Position numbers and translations under genes: made by a program
Sequence record: NC_100331.1
DNA from: Escherichia phage vB_EcoS_HASG4
Length of the DNA stretch: 64,000 bases
Direction: 5' to 3' (one strand)
Notes under the pieces: model-generated
Databases searched by the model: none
What the model was told of the DNA's origin: nothing
What the model saw: the letters and a program-made list of their open reading frames with translations, nothing else
In this document: positions 55,421 to 64,000 of the stretch, piece after piece
How positions within the stretch are numbered: the stretch's first letter is position 1
Layout: each line of letters starts with the position of its first letter

Positions 55421-57085
55421 TTACGCGAAAAATTTACCATTCTTAAAGTCAATCAAGGTGCGCTGACCGTTTGCATAGGTAATAACATGCGTTTGTGTCC
55501 AGCTTGACGCGCCAACGTTATAACCCATGTCCAGACTACCAGACACGCCAGCGGTGTATACGCCGCCGTAAATACTGGCGGTATGAGTGTGCCCCGTGTT
55601 TAATTTGCCCAATTTCTTAAACTGTTTCGGATTGCCACGGCTGCCGTTTATGCCGTTGTGACCGTGTACGCCGCATTCAATGCCTGCAATCTTGAAAGAT
55701 TGATCAGTGGTCAGAAAAATAGCGTTAAACTCACAACCTGCAACCTTACGCAGCGCATAATCTAGCACGTTGAAAGTATCGTCTTTTTCTGCAATAGCTC
55801 CATAAATCGCAGCATTAAGGCGGTGATATAGTTCCGCGTTTGCTGGGTCGTCTTTAATGTTAGCATTACGATCATCCAGCCAACGGGATAGCGCCAAATC
55901 GTGGTTTGATTCAACAATGATCGTTTGAGCAAAATCGCGCTCCATCGATTCCAGCACGCGCCCGGTATCGATAAGATCATCCAGAACTTTATCACGTCCG
56001 GCGGCGTATTGTTTCGCTAGGAATACACCGGAGGCACGATTATGATGATTGCGTGATGTAAAATCATGCACGTCATGGACGAATTGATATTTTGGCTTGA
56101 GAATATCAAGCAAGCTATTTTCCCCAGCCCATGATGCAACGGCGCAAGCGTCATCCAATTTTTCGGCGTGGACGTCGCCATATTGTAAACCTAAAACGTG
56201 CCCCGATGTTTCATAGCATCCGGCGGGAGTAGCGCAAACATTCAGATCATAAAATACGCCGCTTTCATCCATCGTTTCAAGCTGGCGAACAAAAAATTCT
56301 CCGTCTTCGTCGAACTCGACAATAAGCGCACCGAAGTTATGCAGCGCCTCGGCCTTTTGTCCTGCTTTCTGCTGGATGTAGTTTTTTAACGTTGCCGTTC
56401 CGGTTGAATACATACGGCGCACAATTTCACCTTTTAAAGCTGGCACGCTTTCAGCGGTAATTTTAGCCGCTCCGATTGCCAGACCTTCGAGATTAAGCGC
56501 GGTTGCAGTTTCAGCGAATCCAGAAAGCGGATAATCTGCGGTGGGCAAAACATTAATTTCAGCCATGAAAGCAAAACGGCGATTGTTTAAAAATACGTTT
56601 TTGCTGCAAATATATTTATCAAACGCAGAATCATATTTGATTCCGTCTGCCCCTTCCCCATTTTGAAAACCGTTTTTATTATAAATATACTTAGAAACAA
56701 GCAAATCAGCGCCAATAAATTGGGCATATTGTTCAAGCGAGGCTAAAAAGTTTTTATGCGGGAAAGTATTATTCTGAATCGATGTAATAATAAAGCGTTT
56801 GCCTTGTTTTACTTCCCATTGCTCCACCGTGCTAGAAATAACTCCAGCGGCTTCAGGGCGGTCATCGTTTTTTATGGCTTTTGCTGTTTTTGCCGCTTTT
56901 GGTTTCGCTGGTTTATTTGCTTCCAACCAGTCGCAGATAGCGGTCGAGTGTTTTGTAGTATCGTATACCGCTTTTGATATATCGTCGCAGACTTCCAGTT
57001 TAGTAGCGCGCAGACGTTTACCATAGAAATTAAAGTCAGCGGCAAGGTTGAGAATCTGGGCTTGTTTTTCTGCGGAAATAATCAT
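55421..57085 (-). CDS. A1: A1-like pre-early protein, calcineurin-like metallophosphoesterase
   Basis: Phosphoesterase-type motifs GDVH, SNHD, GHTHT; 554 aa, close to what I recall for T5 A1; conserved leader upstream. Confidence 0.6.
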   Translation of the reverse strand: MIISAEKQAQILNLAADFNFYGKRLRATKLEVCDDISKAVYDTTKHSTAICDWLEANKPAKPKAAKTAKAIKNDDRPEAAGVISSTVEQWEVKQGKRFIITSIQNNTFPHKNFLASLEQYAQFIGADLLVSKYIYNKNGFQNGEGADGIKYDSAFDKYICSKNVFLNNRRFAFMAEINVLPTADYPLSGFAETATALNLEGLAIGAAKITAESVPALKGEIVRRMYSTGTATLKNYIQQKAGQKAEALHNFGALIVEFDEDGEFFVRQLETMDESGVFYDLNVCATPAGCYETSGHVLGLQYGDVHAEKLDDACAVASWAGENSLLDILKPKYQFVHDVHDFTSRNHHNRASGVFLAKQYAAGRDKVLDDLIDTGRVLESMERDFAQTIIVESNHDLALSRWLDDRNANIKDDPANAELYHRLNAAIYGAIAEKDDTFNVLDYALRKVAGCEFNAIFLTTDQSFKIAGIECGVHGHNGINGSRGNPKQFKKLGKLNTGHTHTASIYGGVYTAGVSGSLDMGYNVGASSWTQTHVITYANGQRTLIDFKNGKFFA

Positions 57086-57183
57086 GGTAATAAAACTCCA
57101 TTAAAGGGATTAAAAAACGTTTGTTATTGGCAAATATTGCCAAATATAACGCCTATTATTTGAGGCGTTATAATTTGCAATAT

Positions 57184-57399
57184 TTAACTAATCGGCATCA
57201 GGCTAGAACTAACACCACAAGCAACGGCGGCAATAAAACAAATAAGACCTAAACGCTTTGCTAACTTAGATTTACGTTTAAAATAATATGAATCCAGATC
57301 ATTTTGGAAATAAGCAAACAATAACGAGGCCGCTACAATAAATAATCCTAGAATGAGGGATTCAGTAGGGTAAAAGATCATTTTAATAACTCCAGTCAA
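57184..57399 (-). CDS. small membrane protein (two hydrophobic segments)
   Basis: 71-aa ORF between the A2-like and A1-like genes. Confidence 0.35.
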   Translation of the reverse strand: MTGVIKMIFYPTESLILGLFIVAASLLFAYFQNDLDSYYFKRKSKLAKRLGLICFIAAVACGVSSSLMPIS

Positions 57400-57437
57400 A
57401 GGAAATTATAGTGGGGAGTATTCCCCACTAATTAAAT

Positions 57438-57845
57438 TTATTCACCTGCGGCCTGTTTTACTTCATCGGCAACGCCCAATAGTTGCGCCACGGCGTCCAA
57501 CGTTTCTAATTTTGCGCTTTCCAGTGATGCCAGATCGTCAACGTCTTTGATAATACCGGAATCGATGGCATGTTTTGCAATAACGCGCACATAATGCGCT
57601 TTGCGGATAGAACTGCCGCCGCCAACCTTGCGAGGTTTATCGCTTTTCTGATACGCTTTCGCGCTGGTCAATTTTGAGCGAACGGACACGGGAGAAGCCG
57701 CACCTACTGCTTTCGCGATCTCTTTCAAGCCGTCGCTATTTGCGAAATCTAAACCGTTTTCATTGATTAGCTGCTGATACATGGTAACAGCCTGCTGGGT
57801 GTTTTCTTCATTCCAAGAAAATTTTACGGTTTTAACGTTAGTCAT
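57438..57845 (-). CDS. A2: A2-like pre-early protein
   Basis: 135-aa ORF immediately upstream of the A1-like gene; size and position match T5 A2 as I recall it. Confidence 0.45.
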   Translation of the reverse strand: MTNVKTVKFSWNEENTQQAVTMYQQLINENGLDFANSDGLKEIAKAVGAASPVSVRSKLTSAKAYQKSDKPRKVGGGSSIRKAHYVRVIAKHAIDSGIIKDVDDLASLESAKLETLDAVAQLLGVADEVKQAAGE

Positions 57846-57943
57846 GGTAAAAACTCCTATTAGTTTAATTTAAGGGATAAGATTAACATAATGTTAATCG
57901 TTATATACCCCGAACTACTGGGGTATATAAAGTTAACACTAAA

Positions 57944-58195
57944 TTACAAAACAGCTTCCCATTTTTCGTTGCGTTGAACAACCTTTACAACATCGCCGGA
58001 TTTAACGCGAACGCTAAAAACGGTTTTGCCGTTGTTACTGCGTTCCGTTTCAGCGTATACCGCGTCGATTGTATCGAACGGCATAAGCGCCGCACCTTTA
58101 ATGCGTTCGGCCTTTCCGGTTAACTCATCCGTTTTAGTAACGAAAGGAATAAAAACGGATTGACCAATTTTTGGCGCGGTAATAACGTTTTGCAT
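57944..58195 (-). CDS. hypothetical protein
   Basis: 83-aa ORF with the conserved leader and AGGAG SD. Confidence 0.4.
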   Translation of the reverse strand: MQNVITAPKIGQSVFIPFVTKTDELTGKAERIKGAALMPFDTIDAVYAETERSNNGKTVFSVRVKSGDVVKVVQRNEKWEAVL

Positions 58196-58626: not shown

Positions 58627-59256
58627 ATCGTCGATTCCTTATAATAGATAAGTTTACCGCCGATAGGCTTTAAGATGTACCCAATTTTTAAAGAGCGTGG
58701 CGGTAAACTTCCCGCCGTGTAGTTCGTCATTGCCGCCCTACGTGATAAATAATAGGGGATTCCCGAAAATGGCGCAACCTTATTTTTGTAAAGAAACGTA
58801 AAGACAAAATTCACCGGACGGCGTGCGGTGACGGCCTAAAATTAAAAGAAACGGGCGCGCGAATACCACAAAACAAAGCAAATAGGCAAGTAATTTTTTC
58901 ATTTATATTTGCTTTCCCCTACTTGACAAAATCTAAAAAGCTCGTGGTAGCGATAAACGGCTTATCCCCTTATGATGGGATGGCTAAAAACTTTATTGCG
59001 TTCTAGGGCGTTTTAGGCGGCTCATTTTCGATTTAACAAATATCTAACAAAAGCAAAATTGAAAAATAGTTGAAAAAGGTCTTGACTTTTAAAAATCAAG
59101 GGGCATTGCATTAATTTATAAAATAAATTAATTGACTTTTATTTGTTGTTGTGTATTAGAAAGATAGCAAACTAATAATTACTAGAATGATAATCATGCT
59201 GGTGGATTGTAACGGCTTAAATTATTAGCAGACTACTAATCCCGGAAAATCTCATT

Positions 59257-59310
59257 AGCCAACTAACTGTTTCATAAGTTATAATATACATATAAATTAA
59301 TGAGAAATAA
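59257..59310 (+). promoter_or_regulatory. promoter-like element of the T5 family (weak -35)
   Basis: GTTATAAT with TATAAT at 59280-59285, then ATACATATAAATTAATGAGAAA. Confidence 0.35.
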
Positions 59311-59419
59311 TAATTATAAGAAAACGTAACCGATAGGAATAATAACTATAAAAATAATCACTACTATAATAATAACTATAAGAAACTATCGGCCTAAGTG
59401 AGAACCACTATCATTTAAG

Positions 59420-59440
59420 TTATCCACAAAGTTATCCACA
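59420..59440 (+). promoter_or_regulatory. two perfect DnaA boxes (TTATCCACA) in direct repeat
   Basis: TTATCCACA at 59420-59428 and 59432-59440, just downstream of an AT-rich repeat tract. Confidence 0.6.
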
Positions 59441-59794
59441 GCACTTTTTGACTTGACACGATATGCGGCGATACAAGGACTTTTGCTCAGACTTACCCAC
59501 AGGTTATCCTACTGTATAAATATACAAGGTAAAAAGATAGTGTTAACAACTGCAATCAATTTTAAGCGGCCTAAATCGCTTTCTAACGAGCAAAACGCTG
59601 TAGGGTAATATTAAAGTAAAGCCTCAACGTGTCGGCCTGGTGGCTTCGCCGTGTTTTGCTCTTTACTATACCGCTGCGCGGTTAGCATAAAAATAAGCGT
59701 TAGGCAAGGAAAATAAAAAGGTAAAATAATATTTGCCCCTAGAAAGAAAATACCTTTATCATTCACTCACCGATTAACGAGGGAGGCCGAACAA

Positions 59795-60787
59795 ATGAGG
59801 CTTTATAAACCAGATAACGCAACCGTCTTAAAAGGTGCATTGCGCAACCTGCTGGATGGTAGCAGAACAACCAGCATTAAACATTTTGTTTTCAATATTG
59901 AAACACTTCATCGTAATTTTCTTGATGATTACGATGCTTATAATATGAATAGTTTTCTACCGTTATATAATCAAGGGGCAACGCTTGTTTTATATAATCA
60001 GGAATCTCACTTGCTTACTAGTCGAGGGCCAGATACTGATTTTATTATAGTGAAAGGCAGTACAGTAAAAGCCTATGATGCGGGGGCGGGCTTAGAAGTT
60101 TTCACGATAGAAAATTATGAGCCTTATGATAAGGATCTTTATGACGTAGAAAATTTTCTCGATTCATTTTGGCGTTATTTATCAATTGGGTGGAATCGGT
60201 CGGATTATGACGGGTATCGTTTTGCGGCTGTAATGGCTTTTGATGATAACGGTAATTTTTTGTTACCGTCGGAATTATACCCGTATGTATATAATGATTT
60301 AATAGAGGAGGCTGGTTTTACTTTCTGGAAAGATGAAGATCAGCCTATTGACAATATAGAAAACCATGCTGTAAATTCTAACACTCAAAGCGTTAACACT
60401 CAAACTACTGAAAACAAAGGAAAAAATACCATGACCAAGATCGCTAATATCGTTGCCGCTAATAAATCCGCTGTTGTAAATGCTGCAAAACTGGAAGCGG
60501 GTAAAATTGCACTGACTCAAATCACGAAAGTAGCGGCTAAAAAAGCGCCGTTTATGATTAAAGGTTATATTGATACGCCGATTGGTCGTGTAGTGATCGC
60601 TAACCTATTGAGTGTAGCGGTTGACCAGTACGCCCCAACTAACCAAAAGGCAAAAGCGGTAGCAGGCGCGGCTATGGAAGCGGCAATGCTGGAAATGGTG
60701 CAAAGTTTTAACATCGCTGAAATGATTGATGAAATGGTAAAAGGTATCGATATTTCTACTTTTACCACTAACACCGAAAGCGAGTAA
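59795..60787 (+). CDS. hypothetical protein
   Basis: 330-aa ORF with GAGG SD; first gene of a rightward cluster. Confidence 0.45.
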   Translation: MRLYKPDNATVLKGALRNLLDGSRTTSIKHFVFNIETLHRNFLDDYDAYNMNSFLPLYNQGATLVLYNQESHLLTSRGPDTDFIIVKGSTVKAYDAGAGLEVFTIENYEPYDKDLYDVENFLDSFWRYLSIGWNRSDYDGYRFAAVMAFDDNGNFLLPSELYPYVYNDLIEEAGFTFWKDEDQPIDNIENHAVNSNTQSVNTQTTENKGKNTMTKIANIVAANKSAVVNAAKLEAGKIALTQITKVAAKKAPFMIKGYIDTPIGRVVIANLLSVAVDQYAPTNQKAKAVAGAAMEAAMLEMVQSFNIAEMIDEMVKGIDISTFTTNTESE

Positions 60788-60852
60788 TAATATTTAGCGG
60801 GGATTATTTCCCCGCTTTACTATTCCCTTGTTAACTAATAGGAGGCTAACTA

Positions 60853-61347
60853 ATGGCTGAGGAAAAATACGGCTTCTCGCTAGGGGAAGTGAGCACGGCT
60901 AAACACGATATGATCATTTTAGTTGATTGTCATACTGGCTATTGCGGGGAAGGGAACACCGAAGAATATTTTGTTCCTGCTGGTACGGATCTGGACGCTT
61001 TAGCTCACGAAATGGCTATGGATAATGCTTCTCGTTTTGGCAGCGATGGCTATGAAGACGAGGATACTGGCGAATGGTATGAAAATGAAAACGTATACGC
61101 AAGTCTTTATCATTATCAGTTAAGTAAATCCGGCACATATGTAAATGGCGGCGATCCTATTAATTCCGTTGTGAAATTAATTATTAAATATGGTGGCGTC
61201 GAGATAATTGATAACAAAGCGGTAATATATGCAAACCGATTAAAACAGCTTGTTTATATTCCTGATAATACCCGATGGGAGGAATACGCTGTTTTGCATG
61301 ACGAATTGAAACGATGTTTCAATATTGAAGCCCTACAAGTAGTCTAA
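60853..61347 (+). CDS. hypothetical acidic protein
   Basis: 164-aa ORF with AGGAGG SD; Asp/Glu-rich. Confidence 0.45.
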   Translation: MAEEKYGFSLGEVSTAKHDMIILVDCHTGYCGEGNTEEYFVPAGTDLDALAHEMAMDNASRFGSDGYEDEDTGEWYENENVYASLYHYQLSKSGTYVNGGDPINSVVKLIIKYGGVEIIDNKAVIYANRLKQLVYIPDNTRWEEYAVLHDELKRCFNIEALQVV

Positions 61348-61452
61348 TGTAAAGTTTTGTAAAGGTCGCCTTTTATGGTGGCCTTTTTTGTTATAATGCC
61401 TTTACACCAAAACGGTGGATTGAAAATTTTCCCAAAAATTTGGAGGCTTAAA

Positions 61453-61683
61453 ATGGTTGCATACTCTTCTGCTAGTCATCTGTTTACCGCGCAAGGCTGG
61501 GTATCTAATCGCGTCATTATTCATGAAATGGTGCAGGAGTTCGGCATTGCTAAAACGTATAATACCATTCAGGAACTATATAACGCCGATAAAATCGATC
61601 AGCAAACGGCTGGCTTTTTGCTGGATACCCTGAAAGCTGAACATTGCACTAAAAAGCAAGCTGCAAAAATTGTCTTAATGTAA
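61453..61683 (+). CDS. hypothetical protein
   Basis: Internal ATG at 61453 with GGAGG SD; the track's 61375 start lacks an SD. Confidence 0.4.
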   Translation: MVAYSSASHLFTAQGWVSNRVIIHEMVQEFGIAKTYNTIQELYNADKIDQQTAGFLLDTLKAEHCTKKQAAKIVLM

Positions 61684-61736
61684 TTAATAACGGGGGGGGG
61701 GTATTATATCCCCCGATAACTAGGAGGCTATCACAA

Positions 61737-61886
61737 ATGGTTATTTTTCGAGCTATTTTAGCGGGTATCTTGGGCGCTATTTTATCGTTATTTGCAATAG
61801 CTTTCGGTGTTCACGCCGTTATTATCGGCGCGGGTATCGCCGCATTTTCTTATCTGCTGGGCTGCATGACTAGTAAAGGAGAATAA
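61737..61886 (+). CDS. small membrane protein (49 aa)
   Basis: TAGGAGG SD 9 nt upstream; two hydrophobic segments; preceded by a G10 tract. Confidence 0.4.
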   Translation: MVIFRAILAGILGAILSLFAIAFGVHAVIIGAGIAAFSYLLGCMTSKGE

Positions 61887-61888
61887 AA

Positions 61889-62101
61889 ATGATTCGTAAC
61901 GTTTCCCTTGCACGTTCGAAAGGCTTTAGGCTGGTGGACGTTAACACGTTCGAGCGTGAAGATTGTAAAATCGAATATGTAGCACGTAACAAAAATGCCT
62001 TTCGTGTTACTGAGAAAAAATTCGACAAGCGCGGCAACGTGATCGCTGAAACAGTTAAACATTTTGCCACCTTTTATGCTGCGTTTCGTGGGGTATTATA
62101 A
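61889..62101 (+). CDS. hypothetical protein
   Basis: 70-aa ORF with GGAG SD, immediately after the previous stop. Confidence 0.4.
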   Translation: MIRNVSLARSKGFRLVDVNTFEREDCKIEYVARNKNAFRVTEKKFDKRGNVIAETVKHFATFYAAFRGVL

Positions 62102-62102
62102 A

Positions 62103-62447
62103 ATGGTTATTTATGAAGGCAACCGCTTTGTTACTAATTGCCGTCCGGCATTACTAGCAAACTACTTAAATCAGCTTTCCCCAGCTTATAAGGGCGTTAT
62201 TAATATTTATGAGGGCAAGGCGCATTATAAAATCAATGCGGTCGTTGCCCGTGAACTAGCGTTTCAATTTTTGACCTTTGCATCTTGTGACGTTCAGGTC
62301 ATGGGTGAGGCATTAATTGCAGAAAATGAAGATGATTTTATTAATATTTTCCGCAAGATATGCACCGAGCGCCTGATCATGAAAGGCGCTTATATTCAAT
62401 CCACTGCGGATAGTATTGAAACAGCGTTTCGAAAGGTGGCACAATGA
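62103..62447 (+). CDS. hypothetical protein
   Basis: ATG at 62103 directly after the upstream stop; 114 aa. Confidence 0.4.
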   Translation: MVIYEGNRFVTNCRPALLANYLNQLSPAYKGVINIYEGKAHYKINAVVARELAFQFLTFASCDVQVMGEALIAENEDDFINIFRKICTERLIMKGAYIQSTADSIETAFRKVAQ

Positions 62448-62602
62448 AAAAGTTTTTAATAGCTGGTATGTTTCCTTTGTTGCCTTATGTAATTTGCTGG
62501 GCTTTATATGCTCATGGTGCTAGTGTTCCCGGTGTGGCTTCATTTGGTGTATCGGCTGGTTTTCTAACCGGACTATTGGCAAGCGTATATTTACGCAAAT
62601 AA
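62444..62602 (+). CDS. small membrane protein (52 aa)
   Basis: ATG overlapping the upstream stop; two hydrophobic segments. Confidence 0.35.
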   Translation: MKKFLIAGMFPLLPYVICWALYAHGASVPGVASFGVSAGFLTGLLASVYLRK

Positions 62603-62620
62603 TTAATAACGGGAGTTATT

Positions 62621-62824
62621 ATGAGCAATAAAATTATTGTAACCAAAATCAGTACAATGGTTGATGTTTTTTACGTGCCCGATACGCCGGAGAATCGGCA
62701 AGCGGTTGAGCGTGGCGAGTATGATAAAGTGATTTATGATCACGATGGTTATTATCAGCATTTGGCGGATTCCTACGGGGAGGAGGAAAAAATCACGCAT
62801 CGACTACCGGAGGAGGATTTATGA
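62621..62824 (+). CDS. hypothetical protein
   Basis: 67-aa ORF with GGGAG SD. Confidence 0.4.
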   Translation: MSNKIIVTKISTMVDVFYVPDTPENRQAVERGEYDKVIYDHDGYYQHLADSYGEEEKITHRLPEEDL

Positions 62825-62925
62825 AACGATGGTTTAATCACTGGTATAAACGGTTTTTAGTACGCCGTCGCAAGTCTAGGCATCAAGATGAGTGGAGGGA
62901 GTGGGCAAAGCGTAACGGTTGCCCA
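62821..62925 (+). CDS. hypothetical small basic protein (uncertain)
   Basis: 34-aa Arg/Trp-rich ORF overlapping the previous stop. Confidence 0.2.
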
Positions 62926-62975
62926 CTACTATAATAATCACGGGGCGCAACTAGTAAGAAGTGCCCCCAATTCTC

Positions 62976-62996
62976 AAATGAGAATCATTCTCATTT
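62976..62996. repeat. perfect 21-bp palindrome AAATGAGAATCATTCTCATTT
   Basis: Read directly; the two 10-bp arms are exact reverse complements around a central C. Confidence 0.8.
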
Positions 62997-63190
62997 GACC
63001 GCGCCCGCGATGATTAGCCTGCTAATGGTTAGGGTGTTACGTGTCGCCTTGTGTGATCGTTAGCGTGCTAACTAATTTTCAAGCCTCCTCCAATTTTCCC
63101 CTTGTTTTAGTATCCCCGCCAAAATTAAACGCGTTAGAATGCGATTCAGGACGTTTTAAGCCTATATTAGAATTATTCACTGCATAGGAA

Positions 63191-63210
63191 TACTGTATAT
63201 TTATACAGTA
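63191..63210. promoter_or_regulatory. LexA-box-like palindrome TACTGTATATTTATACAGTA
   Basis: Fits CTGT-N8-ACAG with an all-AT spacer; one mismatch to TACTGTATATATATACAGTA. Confidence 0.5.
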
Positions 63211-63222
63211 GAATAACCTGGG

Positions 63223-63301
63223 GATAAGTCTGTGGATAACGCTTCAAAATGGCTAGGGTTCTGTCAAGTCAAATCGTGCTGTTGATAAGTCTGTGGATAA
63301 C
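63223..63301. repeat. exact 18-bp direct repeat GATAAGTCTGTGGATAAC x2, each with a DnaA box (TGTGGATAA)
   Basis: Copies at 63223-63240 and 63284-63301. Confidence 0.75.
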
Positions 63302-63332
63302 TTAAATAACAGTGTTTCTCACTTCCGTTTTT

Positions 63333-63500
63333 AAATGCGAATCATTATCATTCGCATTTCACTAGCTAACCGATAATCACTCCACTTTTTAAATGAGAAT
63401 CATTTCACTTCTTGAATAGTTCTCATTCCCTTTCTTAAATGCAAATCATTATCATTCGCATTTCACTTTTTAAATGAGATTGATTCTCATTATCATTCGC
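63333..63500. repeat. cluster of palindromes built from AAATG(C/A)GAAT half-sites
   Basis: AAATGCGAATCATTATCATTCGCATTT (63333-63359), AAATGAGAA...TTCTCATT (63391-63427), AAATGCAAATCATTATCATTCGCATTT (63437-63463), AAATGAGATTGATTCTCATT (63472-63491). Confidence 0.75.
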
Positions 63501-63533
63501 ATTCAGGCGAGCAAGGCAATTGCCCTGCGCTTT

Positions 63534-63757
63534 TGTGCAAATCCGACATTTGCCCCCATGGATTACGCGTGGGCATGTATGTGCGAATCCGACAATTTTT
63601 GGTAGTGTGCAAATCCGACCCGAAAAATTTTTATAGTGTGCGAATCCGACAATGAATTTTCCTAAAAACTCCAGCAATCACGAACTGCGTTCGAATCCTG
63701 TGGAATTAGCTAGAGTATGTGCAAATCCGACATGTGTTGAGCTGTGCGAATCCGACA
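63534..63757. repeat. six direct 15-bp iterons TGTGC(G/A)AATCCGAC(A/C)
   Basis: Copies start at 63534, 63580, 63606, 63637, 63718, 63743; spacings 46, 26, 31, 81, 25 bp; a degenerate copy (CGTTCGAATCC) near 63690. Confidence 0.8.
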
Positions 63758-64000
63758 AGATTTTTGTGACTTCGATTGGAGGGTGTGTGATTGTATAGGT
63801 TTGAGGAGAAGATGAGAGAGCGAGAGAAATTTTGGGACTAGAAGGATGTGGGCGCAAGATTGGTGCGGAGCACCTGATTTGCGGGGATTTTGGGGGAGAG
63901 TTGAGATAATTTGGGAAGATTTGAGATAGGTGCAGAAAAAGTAAAATTTTATTAGCTAAATGGAGCAAAATAGCTTGACAAGTGAAAATTCTTGTGGCTC

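Follow-up and report, generated by a model that had tools for sequence, protein, structure and literature searches.

Stem-loops situated between the cistrons of an mRNA shield the upstream cistron from 3'-exonucleases and set the stability of individual mRNA segments, as exemplified by the malE-malF REP hairpins and the hairpins of the puf operon. Rho-independent terminators likewise place a GC-rich stem-loop at the end of a gene and follow it with a U-tract. In T4-type phages, PeSL (promoter-stem-loop) cassettes flank mobile small genes, and lambdoid phages have "boundary sequences". Long homopolymers, finally, are known from contingency loci: Campylobacter phages of the Fletchervirus group carry poly-G tracts of 7–11 nt in receptor-binding genes, and in T2 and T4 homopolymer repeats of at least 6 nt, not restricted to one base, are hypermutable (10.1101/2025.10.21.683753).

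The site described here, a run of ten G residues (G10) between two small genes of a T5-like phage, has features in common with each of these systems. It is a strain-specific homopolymer expansion within a conserved, previously unannotated intercistronic hairpin that is otherwise ordinary, so that the feature is real but ordinary as well. We favour a reading, to which we assign a probability of about 0.6, where G10 is the 5' arm of the conserved hairpin, the length of the tract is neutral, and the hairpin is the functional unit, with a role that we infer to lie at the RNA level. The long homopolymer is explicable by its structural context, and the current understanding of T5 biology is unchanged by these findings.

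Genome setting of the G tract

The record closest to the window (the whole stretch of DNA that was analysed, 64 kb in length) is that of Escherichia phage vB_EcoS_EASG3 (MK373799, Tequintavirus), which is 99.9% identical to positions 60800-63000 over 2.2 kb; about 430 further T5-like phages match the same interval at 80–95%. The last 24 kb of EASG3 align to window positions 40000-64000, and the EASG3 record ends where the window ends, which makes the window the right-hand end of a linear genome of the T5 type. Judged by alignment, it is the right 64 kb of a Tequintavirus genome, with the right terminal repeat included. In the annotation of phage T5, the homologous genes T5.011 to T5.017 are found within the left terminal repeat, among the pre-early genes that it carries and with the "injection stop signal" region immediately to their right. 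By homology, the G tract is thus placed in the terminal repeat with the pre-early genes, between the T5.012 and T5.013 homologs. The pre-early genes of this repeat are expressed from the first DNA entering the cell.

Differences between the window and EASG3 (311 aligned positions over 16.6 kb, substitutions and gap columns taken together) occur in patches. They are concentrated at window positions 55500-58000 (about 210 of the 311) and 59000-59400 (93 of the 311), while the remainder of the terminal repeat is nearly identical. The two patches suggest a recombinational replacement of blocks, involving genes on the A1/A2 side and repeat regions 1 and 2. At the other end of the cluster, window positions 62970-63800 form a dense repeat region with the palindromes AAATGAGAATCATTCTCATTT and AAATGCGAATCATTATCATTCGCATTT, two copies of GATAAGTCTGTGGATAAC (a DnaA-box-like motif) and six repeats of the form TGTGC[A/G]AATCCGAC; this region matches the annotated "injection stop signal" and repeat region 3 of T5 and is therefore already known.

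The features of the cluster that are needed here are as follows.

61361-61386, plus strand: terminator-like hairpin with a T-run (-15.3 kcal/mol, z -3.65); a terminator is annotated here in EASG3
61389-61397, plus strand: extended -10 element TGTTATAAT of a putative promoter, directly 3' of the preceding terminator
61453-61683, plus strand: T5.012 homolog, 76 aa, with the stop codon TAA at 61681-61683 (phrog_5145, 5e-50)
61681-61694, plus strand: first copy of the box TAATTAATAACGGG, consisting of the stop codon, an 8-nt AT-rich spacer and the first three Gs of the tract
61692-61701, plus strand: G10 tract, which is the hairpin's 5' arm in expanded form
61696-61714, plus strand: stem-loop with the lowest-energy register GGGGGGUA/UUA/UAUCCCCC, eight pairs including one G·U (predicted -13.1 kcal/mol)
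61722-61886, plus strand: ribosome-binding site (RBS) AGGAGG (61722-61727) and T5.013 homolog with its ATG at 61737 (phrog_5607)
62444-62602, plus strand: 52-aa hydrophobic ORF with the stop codon TAA at 62600-62602 (phrog_35622, 9e-39), a CDS in EASG3
62600-62613, plus strand: second copy of the box TAATTAATAACGGG, consisting of the stop codon, a spacer and the start of the RBS GGGAG
62604-62621, plus strand: weak hairpin UAAUAAC-GGGA-GUUAUUA (-4.7 kcal/mol, z -1.6, not significant), found in some relatives only

Just upstream of T5.012 there are thus a classical terminator and, directly 3' of it, an extended -10 element, so that T5.012 and the later genes probably form one transcription unit. 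Consistent with this, the BF23 record carries a predicted pre-early promoter at the place equivalent to 61361-61397, and this terminator/promoter pair is probably the start of a T5.012-T5.017 transcription unit. The T5.013 homolog is a 49-aa hydrophobic protein annotated as having "two transmembrane domains", and the first of the two boxes does precede the RBS and ATG of a small membrane protein gene, as the initial annotation had stated. Read 5' to 3', this first junction has the order ATG TAA TTAATAAC GGGGGGGGGG TATTATAT CCCCC GATAACT AGGAGG CTATCACAA ATG.

The labels of two neighbouring genes deserve a comment. The 70-aa T5.014 homolog (61889-62101) carries the RefSeq and PHROG label "endonuclease nicking abasic sites generated by Ung", while Pfam PF26847 (Phage_T5_AP_Endonuclease) matches the 114-aa T5.015 homolog (62103-62447). 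The published nickase is T5.015 (PMC8201957), and the label on T5.014 has probably slipped by one gene.

A conserved hairpin and its expanded arm

The sequence at 61681-61701 is indeed TAATTAATAAC followed by exactly ten Gs (61692-61701). This is the sole run of at least eight G or C in the 64 kb, and a run as long was obtained in 2 of 100 shuffles. The tract pairs with CCCCC at 61710-61714, leaving G61692-61695 unpaired. We gathered the corresponding junction from 98 T5-like loci (IMG/VR, metagenomes, Logan/ENA assemblies and GenBank), representing 35 distinct variants of 44 nt, and a GC-rich hairpin is present at the same spot in all 35, beginning 7–8 nt 3' of the T5.012 stop codon. The stop codon TAA and the adjacent TTAATAAC are kept in nearly all Tequintavirus relatives. 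Hairpins occur as three types, namely GGGGCG-7nt-CGCCCC (in T5 itself), GGGGGATA-3nt-TATCCCCC, and (A)GGGGATA-3nt-TATCCCC(T) (in Epseptimavirus), which pass between lineages by recombination. Predicted energies range from -11.4 to -15.6 kcal/mol across all types and natural variants. It is the local hairpin alone that stands out, as the whole 86-nt region folds no better than its shuffles (z -0.21).

The pairing itself is conserved. In an alignment of 19 distinct sequences, standard pairs occupy 91.4% of the cells, and this value falls to 49–65% when the partner columns are slid. Both sides change in 4 of the 8 pairs (GC/AU, GC/CG, AU/GC/GU and UA/AU), and the observed covariation score was reached by none of 500 shuffles, the covariation coming from about three sequence types and so from few independent events. 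Pair 21-29 is G·U in place of A-U in the window and in EASG3, and a G·U is also seen in two Epseptimavirus sequences. As G·U exists only on the sense strand and would be C·A on the other, the fold has most likely been selected in sense-strand RNA, and the comparison makes it most likely that the element is an RNA hairpin acting in the sense strand. A terminator for the minus strand was considered and rejected, as there are no converging minus-strand genes and the G·U pairs would turn into C·A there.

A long G run is confined to a single lineage. Among the 35 distinct variants the first G run has 4 nt in 23 and 5 nt in 10, and only EASG3 (9 nt) and the window (10 nt) exceed this; a metagenome scan with the conserved flank retrieved eight contigs of the T5 type, in each of which the run is G4 or G5. 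Other lineages with the same hairpin show run-length differences of ±1–2 nt. One variant, found at three loci, has flanks identical to those of the window and reads GGGGG-A-TATTATAT-CCCCC. Its A after GGGGG implies that the window lineage has swapped this A for four or five Gs, the hairpin arm having presumably changed from GGGGGA to G9 or G10. A likely path would be an A-to-G substitution, with the pair kept as G·U, and slippage thereafter.

Between 59368 and 64000, a substitution at 60887 and a one-G indel at the tract are all that separates the window from EASG3: the window has G10, and the EASG3 record reads G9 in each of the two terminal-repeat copies. The tract had been described as prone to slipped-strand changes. 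What stands of this description is that its length differs between near-identical genomes, and the one-base difference fits slippage; G9 versus G10 as such may be a homopolymer sequencing error. According to this explanation, which we consider rather unlikely, the long tract does exist, and one of the two genomes gives it a wrong length through a homopolymer error in sequencing or assembly. Indels of one base in homopolymers, here of 9–10 nt, are the classic error class. In addition, finished T5-like records often write one consensus twice as both terminal-repeat copies, so that the two G9 copies of EASG3 may not be independent. Against it, the long tract is present in two isolates which differ at the 311 positions described above, so at least a G9 must be genuine.

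The role of the hairpin

The hairpin is retained in three loci where T5.013 is missing, and is absent from Gostya9 and one further locus where T5.012 is missing. By this distribution, the hairpin is a 3' element of the T5.012 gene. It sits between the T5.012 stop codon and the T5.013 RBS, which starts 7 nt 3' of the stem, and the two co-oriented cistrons would belong to a single transcription unit. The element would act in the sense-strand polycistronic pre-early mRNA, after the first cistron of the transcription unit, where it may be a barrier to 3'-to-5' decay that shields the T5.012 segment. It may also be a weak pause site or attenuator in front of the gene for the small membrane protein. 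In either case it would fix how much T5.012 is expressed relative to the small membrane protein and the host-takeover genes downstream, and it could help to explain the expression balance in a largely uncharacterised pre-early host-takeover cluster. Neither transcript or 3'-end data nor reports of a hairpin at this T5 site were found in the literature searched, so that the RNA-level role is one that we infer.

These properties are reminiscent of the malE-malF REP and puf hairpins. As in those systems, a stable GC-rich hairpin without a U-tail is located right after a stop codon in a same-strand cluster, and, as in intercistronic stem-loops generally, the structure is kept through compensatory changes, with G·U tolerated on the sense strand. 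Both the position between cistrons and the strand-specific conservation of structure (in about three independent types) are therefore found here. Unlike REP elements, the T5.012 hairpin is far smaller, is present as a single copy, has one arm inflated by a homopolymer in this phage, and is known here from its sequence. An Rfam scan of 59000-64000 (E<=1) gave a sub-threshold DapZ match elsewhere and none at the hairpin site.

A hairpin that directly follows a stop codon and has a GC-rich stem of -11 to -16 kcal/mol might also be a true intrinsic terminator of the T5.012 transcript, with T5.013 and the later genes expressed by read-through only. It shares the GC-rich stem-loop at a gene end with Rho-independent terminators, the Epseptimavirus versions are followed by UAAUUUCU, with 5 U in 8, and at other places in T5 and EASG3 the annotated terminators include similar hairpins with poor tails. 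We nevertheless regard this as improbable. The GC-rich 8-bp stem is followed not by a 3' U-rich tract but by GATAACTA (2 T in 8); the RNA tail is GAUAACUA here and ACUAACUA in T5, with 2 U in 8. Tequintavirus forms thus differ from Rho-independent terminators in having no U-tract and in being followed at once by the next gene on the same strand, whose RBS is reached within 7 nt and for which no new promoter was found. The terminator scan did not call the hairpin, and it is unannotated in all five records inspected for terminators (including T5, BF23, EASG3 and Lindwurm); indeed, it is unmarked in all T5-like records whose annotation was inspected.

Two other GC-rich hairpins with a poor U-tail were noted in the same cluster. 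One (60796-60816, GCGGGGA...TCCCCGC, -21 kcal/mol in context) follows the T5.011 homolog and is an annotated terminator in EASG3. The other (62942-62967, GGGGCGC...GTGCCCC, -19 kcal/mol in context) follows the last small ORF, and its equivalent appears to be the terminator annotated in T5 after T5.017. It seems that several genes in this phage group end in a U-poor hairpin.

The repeated box and the effect of tract length

A second box had been reported before the next gene, and the 14-mer TAATTAATAACGGG does recur at 62600-62613, ahead of the ATG of the T5.017 homolog at 62621. It occurs exactly twice in the 64 kb (61681-61694 and 62600-62613) and is the longest exact direct repeat of the 3.6-kb cluster, a length of 14 nt being reached by 5.7% of 300 dinucleotide shuffles. 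The corresponding junctions of phage T5 have a 16-mer in common, TAATAACGGGGCGTTA (1.3% of shuffles). A repeat at the same two junctions in both the window and T5 means that the pairing of these sites is probably not due to chance. The G tract and the repeated box are both real and mildly non-random.

The suggestion that the shared box is a common signal for the downstream genes did not hold. The first three letters of each copy are the stop codon of the gene before it, and the ATG of the gene after it is 42 nt away in one case and 7 nt in the other; the relation of the box is therefore constant upstream but not downstream. The GGG of the first copy opens the hairpin stem, and that of the second copy opens the RBS GGGAG. 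On this comparison, the TAATTAATAAC box is a stop codon plus an AT-rich spacer, found at two gene ends of a mosaic cluster. At the second box, the loop of the weak hairpin at 62604-62621 is the GGGA of the RBS GGGAG, and the last base of its 3' arm is the A of the AUG of the T5.017 homolog. A hairpin presenting this RBS in its loop was rejected as a candidate, as the fold is weak and its 5' arm is missing or mismatched, without compensation, in several relatives.

The box, the hairpin and the ribosome-site flank could, at the DNA level, provide a short "boundary" homology for the exchange of gene cassettes. The two hairpin types A and B do not track the similarity of their flanks, which differ from the window by 4 + 4 nt in a type A locus (L182) and by 42 + 69 nt in a type B locus (L022). 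Moreover, gene content upstream of T5.017 switches right at the box and RBS. Given these discordant types and the change of gene content at the box, short junction homologies may take part in cassette exchange, and the 14–16 nt common to the two junctions in both the window phage and T5 would suit such a process. We still consider a boundary role quite improbable: only two copies exist in 64 kb, fine mosaicism is general in the pre-early region, and the compensatory changes and the sense-strand G·U point to selection of an RNA fold, which a recombination site does not need.

As an observation in its own right, the hairpin alleles GGGGCG/CGCCCC and GGGGGATA/TATCCCCC (61696-61714; compared in L182, L174 and L022) assort independently of the similarity of the flanking genes, and the type B locus that is 42 + 69 nt away carries the ancestral form of the window's junction. 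As far as these sequences go, the independent assortment indicates mosaic exchange on a very fine scale.

An extended version of the exchange hypothesis would treat the box, hairpin and ribosome-site flank as an exchangeable "junction cassette" with discrete alleles that are swapped independently of the flanking genes. The box would then be the micro-homology by which pre-early host-takeover genes are shuffled, and the expansion of the G run a by-product of this turnover. We regard this as distinctly doubtful. Short conserved sequences with a hairpin at gene junctions, hyperplastic small early genes and mosaic exchange are shared with PeSL cassettes and boundary sequences. In contrast to these, no promoter-like match is found here, and the motif, rather than recurring with a promoter at many gene boundaries, has two copies in 64 kb.

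We return to the preferred reading, in which tract length is neutral. No ORF of at least 30 aa crosses the G tract on either strand, and the promoter scan gave no promoter-like site across it. The tract lies 20 nt upstream of the RBS, outside the interval between RBS and ATG. For G8, G9, G10, G11 and G12 alike, the hairpin has a predicted energy of -13.1 kcal/mol, since any additional G is predicted to remain without a partner at the 5' side. Accessibility, calculated as the mean unpaired probability in a 200-nt context for the tracts G5A and G5 to G12, was predicted to be 0.58–0.64 for the RBS and 0.20–0.24 for the AUG over all tracts, with the RBS value flat from G7 to G12. By these predictions, the length of the G tract is most likely neutral, without an effect of its own. 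The claim in the initial annotation that variation of the tract could alter expression is accordingly not supported, as no ORF, promoter or RBS-ATG spacing is touched and the predicted energy and accessibility are flat.

Extra Gs do shift the lowest-energy register of the stem 4–5 nt away from the stop codon, which could matter if the terminating ribosome contacts the stem. Two further candidates were rejected. The TATTAT after the G run has no acceptable -35 at 16–18 nt when inspected manually, was not found by the promoter scan, and is missing altogether in T5-type relatives. An intramolecular G-quadruplex of two tetrads with 1-nt loops needs 11 nt, more than the ten Gs available, and there are no other G runs nearby.

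Contingency loci such as those of Fletchervirus and of T2/T4 resemble the present site in having a long run (of G in this case) with a one-base difference between nearest relatives, and the length of G10 is indeed in the slip-prone range (6–7 nt or more). They differ in that their tracts frameshift an ORF, while G10 is non-coding, outside promoter-like sites, not at a spacing-critical location, and predicted to be insensitive to length. It is thus very unlikely that slippage of the G tract constitutes a phase-variable switch for the downstream membrane-protein gene: the G10/G9 difference between genomes otherwise one base apart in 4.6 kb would fit such a switch, as would the hypermutability of homopolymers of at least 6 nt in other phages, a few of them intergenic (10.1101/2025.10.21.683753), but the tract is outside any ORF, promoter-like site or RBS-ATG spacing, the predicted hairpin energy and accessibility are independent of its length, and relatives function with G4 or G5 and show run-length differences elsewhere without a pattern. 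The G9/G10 site is a likely hotspot of error or heteroplasmy in the EASG3 lineage and should not be over-read as a regulatory switch.

A scan of IMG/VR for TAATAAC followed by at least seven Gs gave 66 matches, all in unrelated contigs and none of them T5-like. Several of these environmental viral contigs have the sequence TTTTAATAACGGGGGGG-CATCAC-(G)CCCCCC-ACTG in common, a poly-G/poly-C hairpin after a conserved GTAGGTTAGGGTAGTTAC motif that was caught by chance with this pattern.
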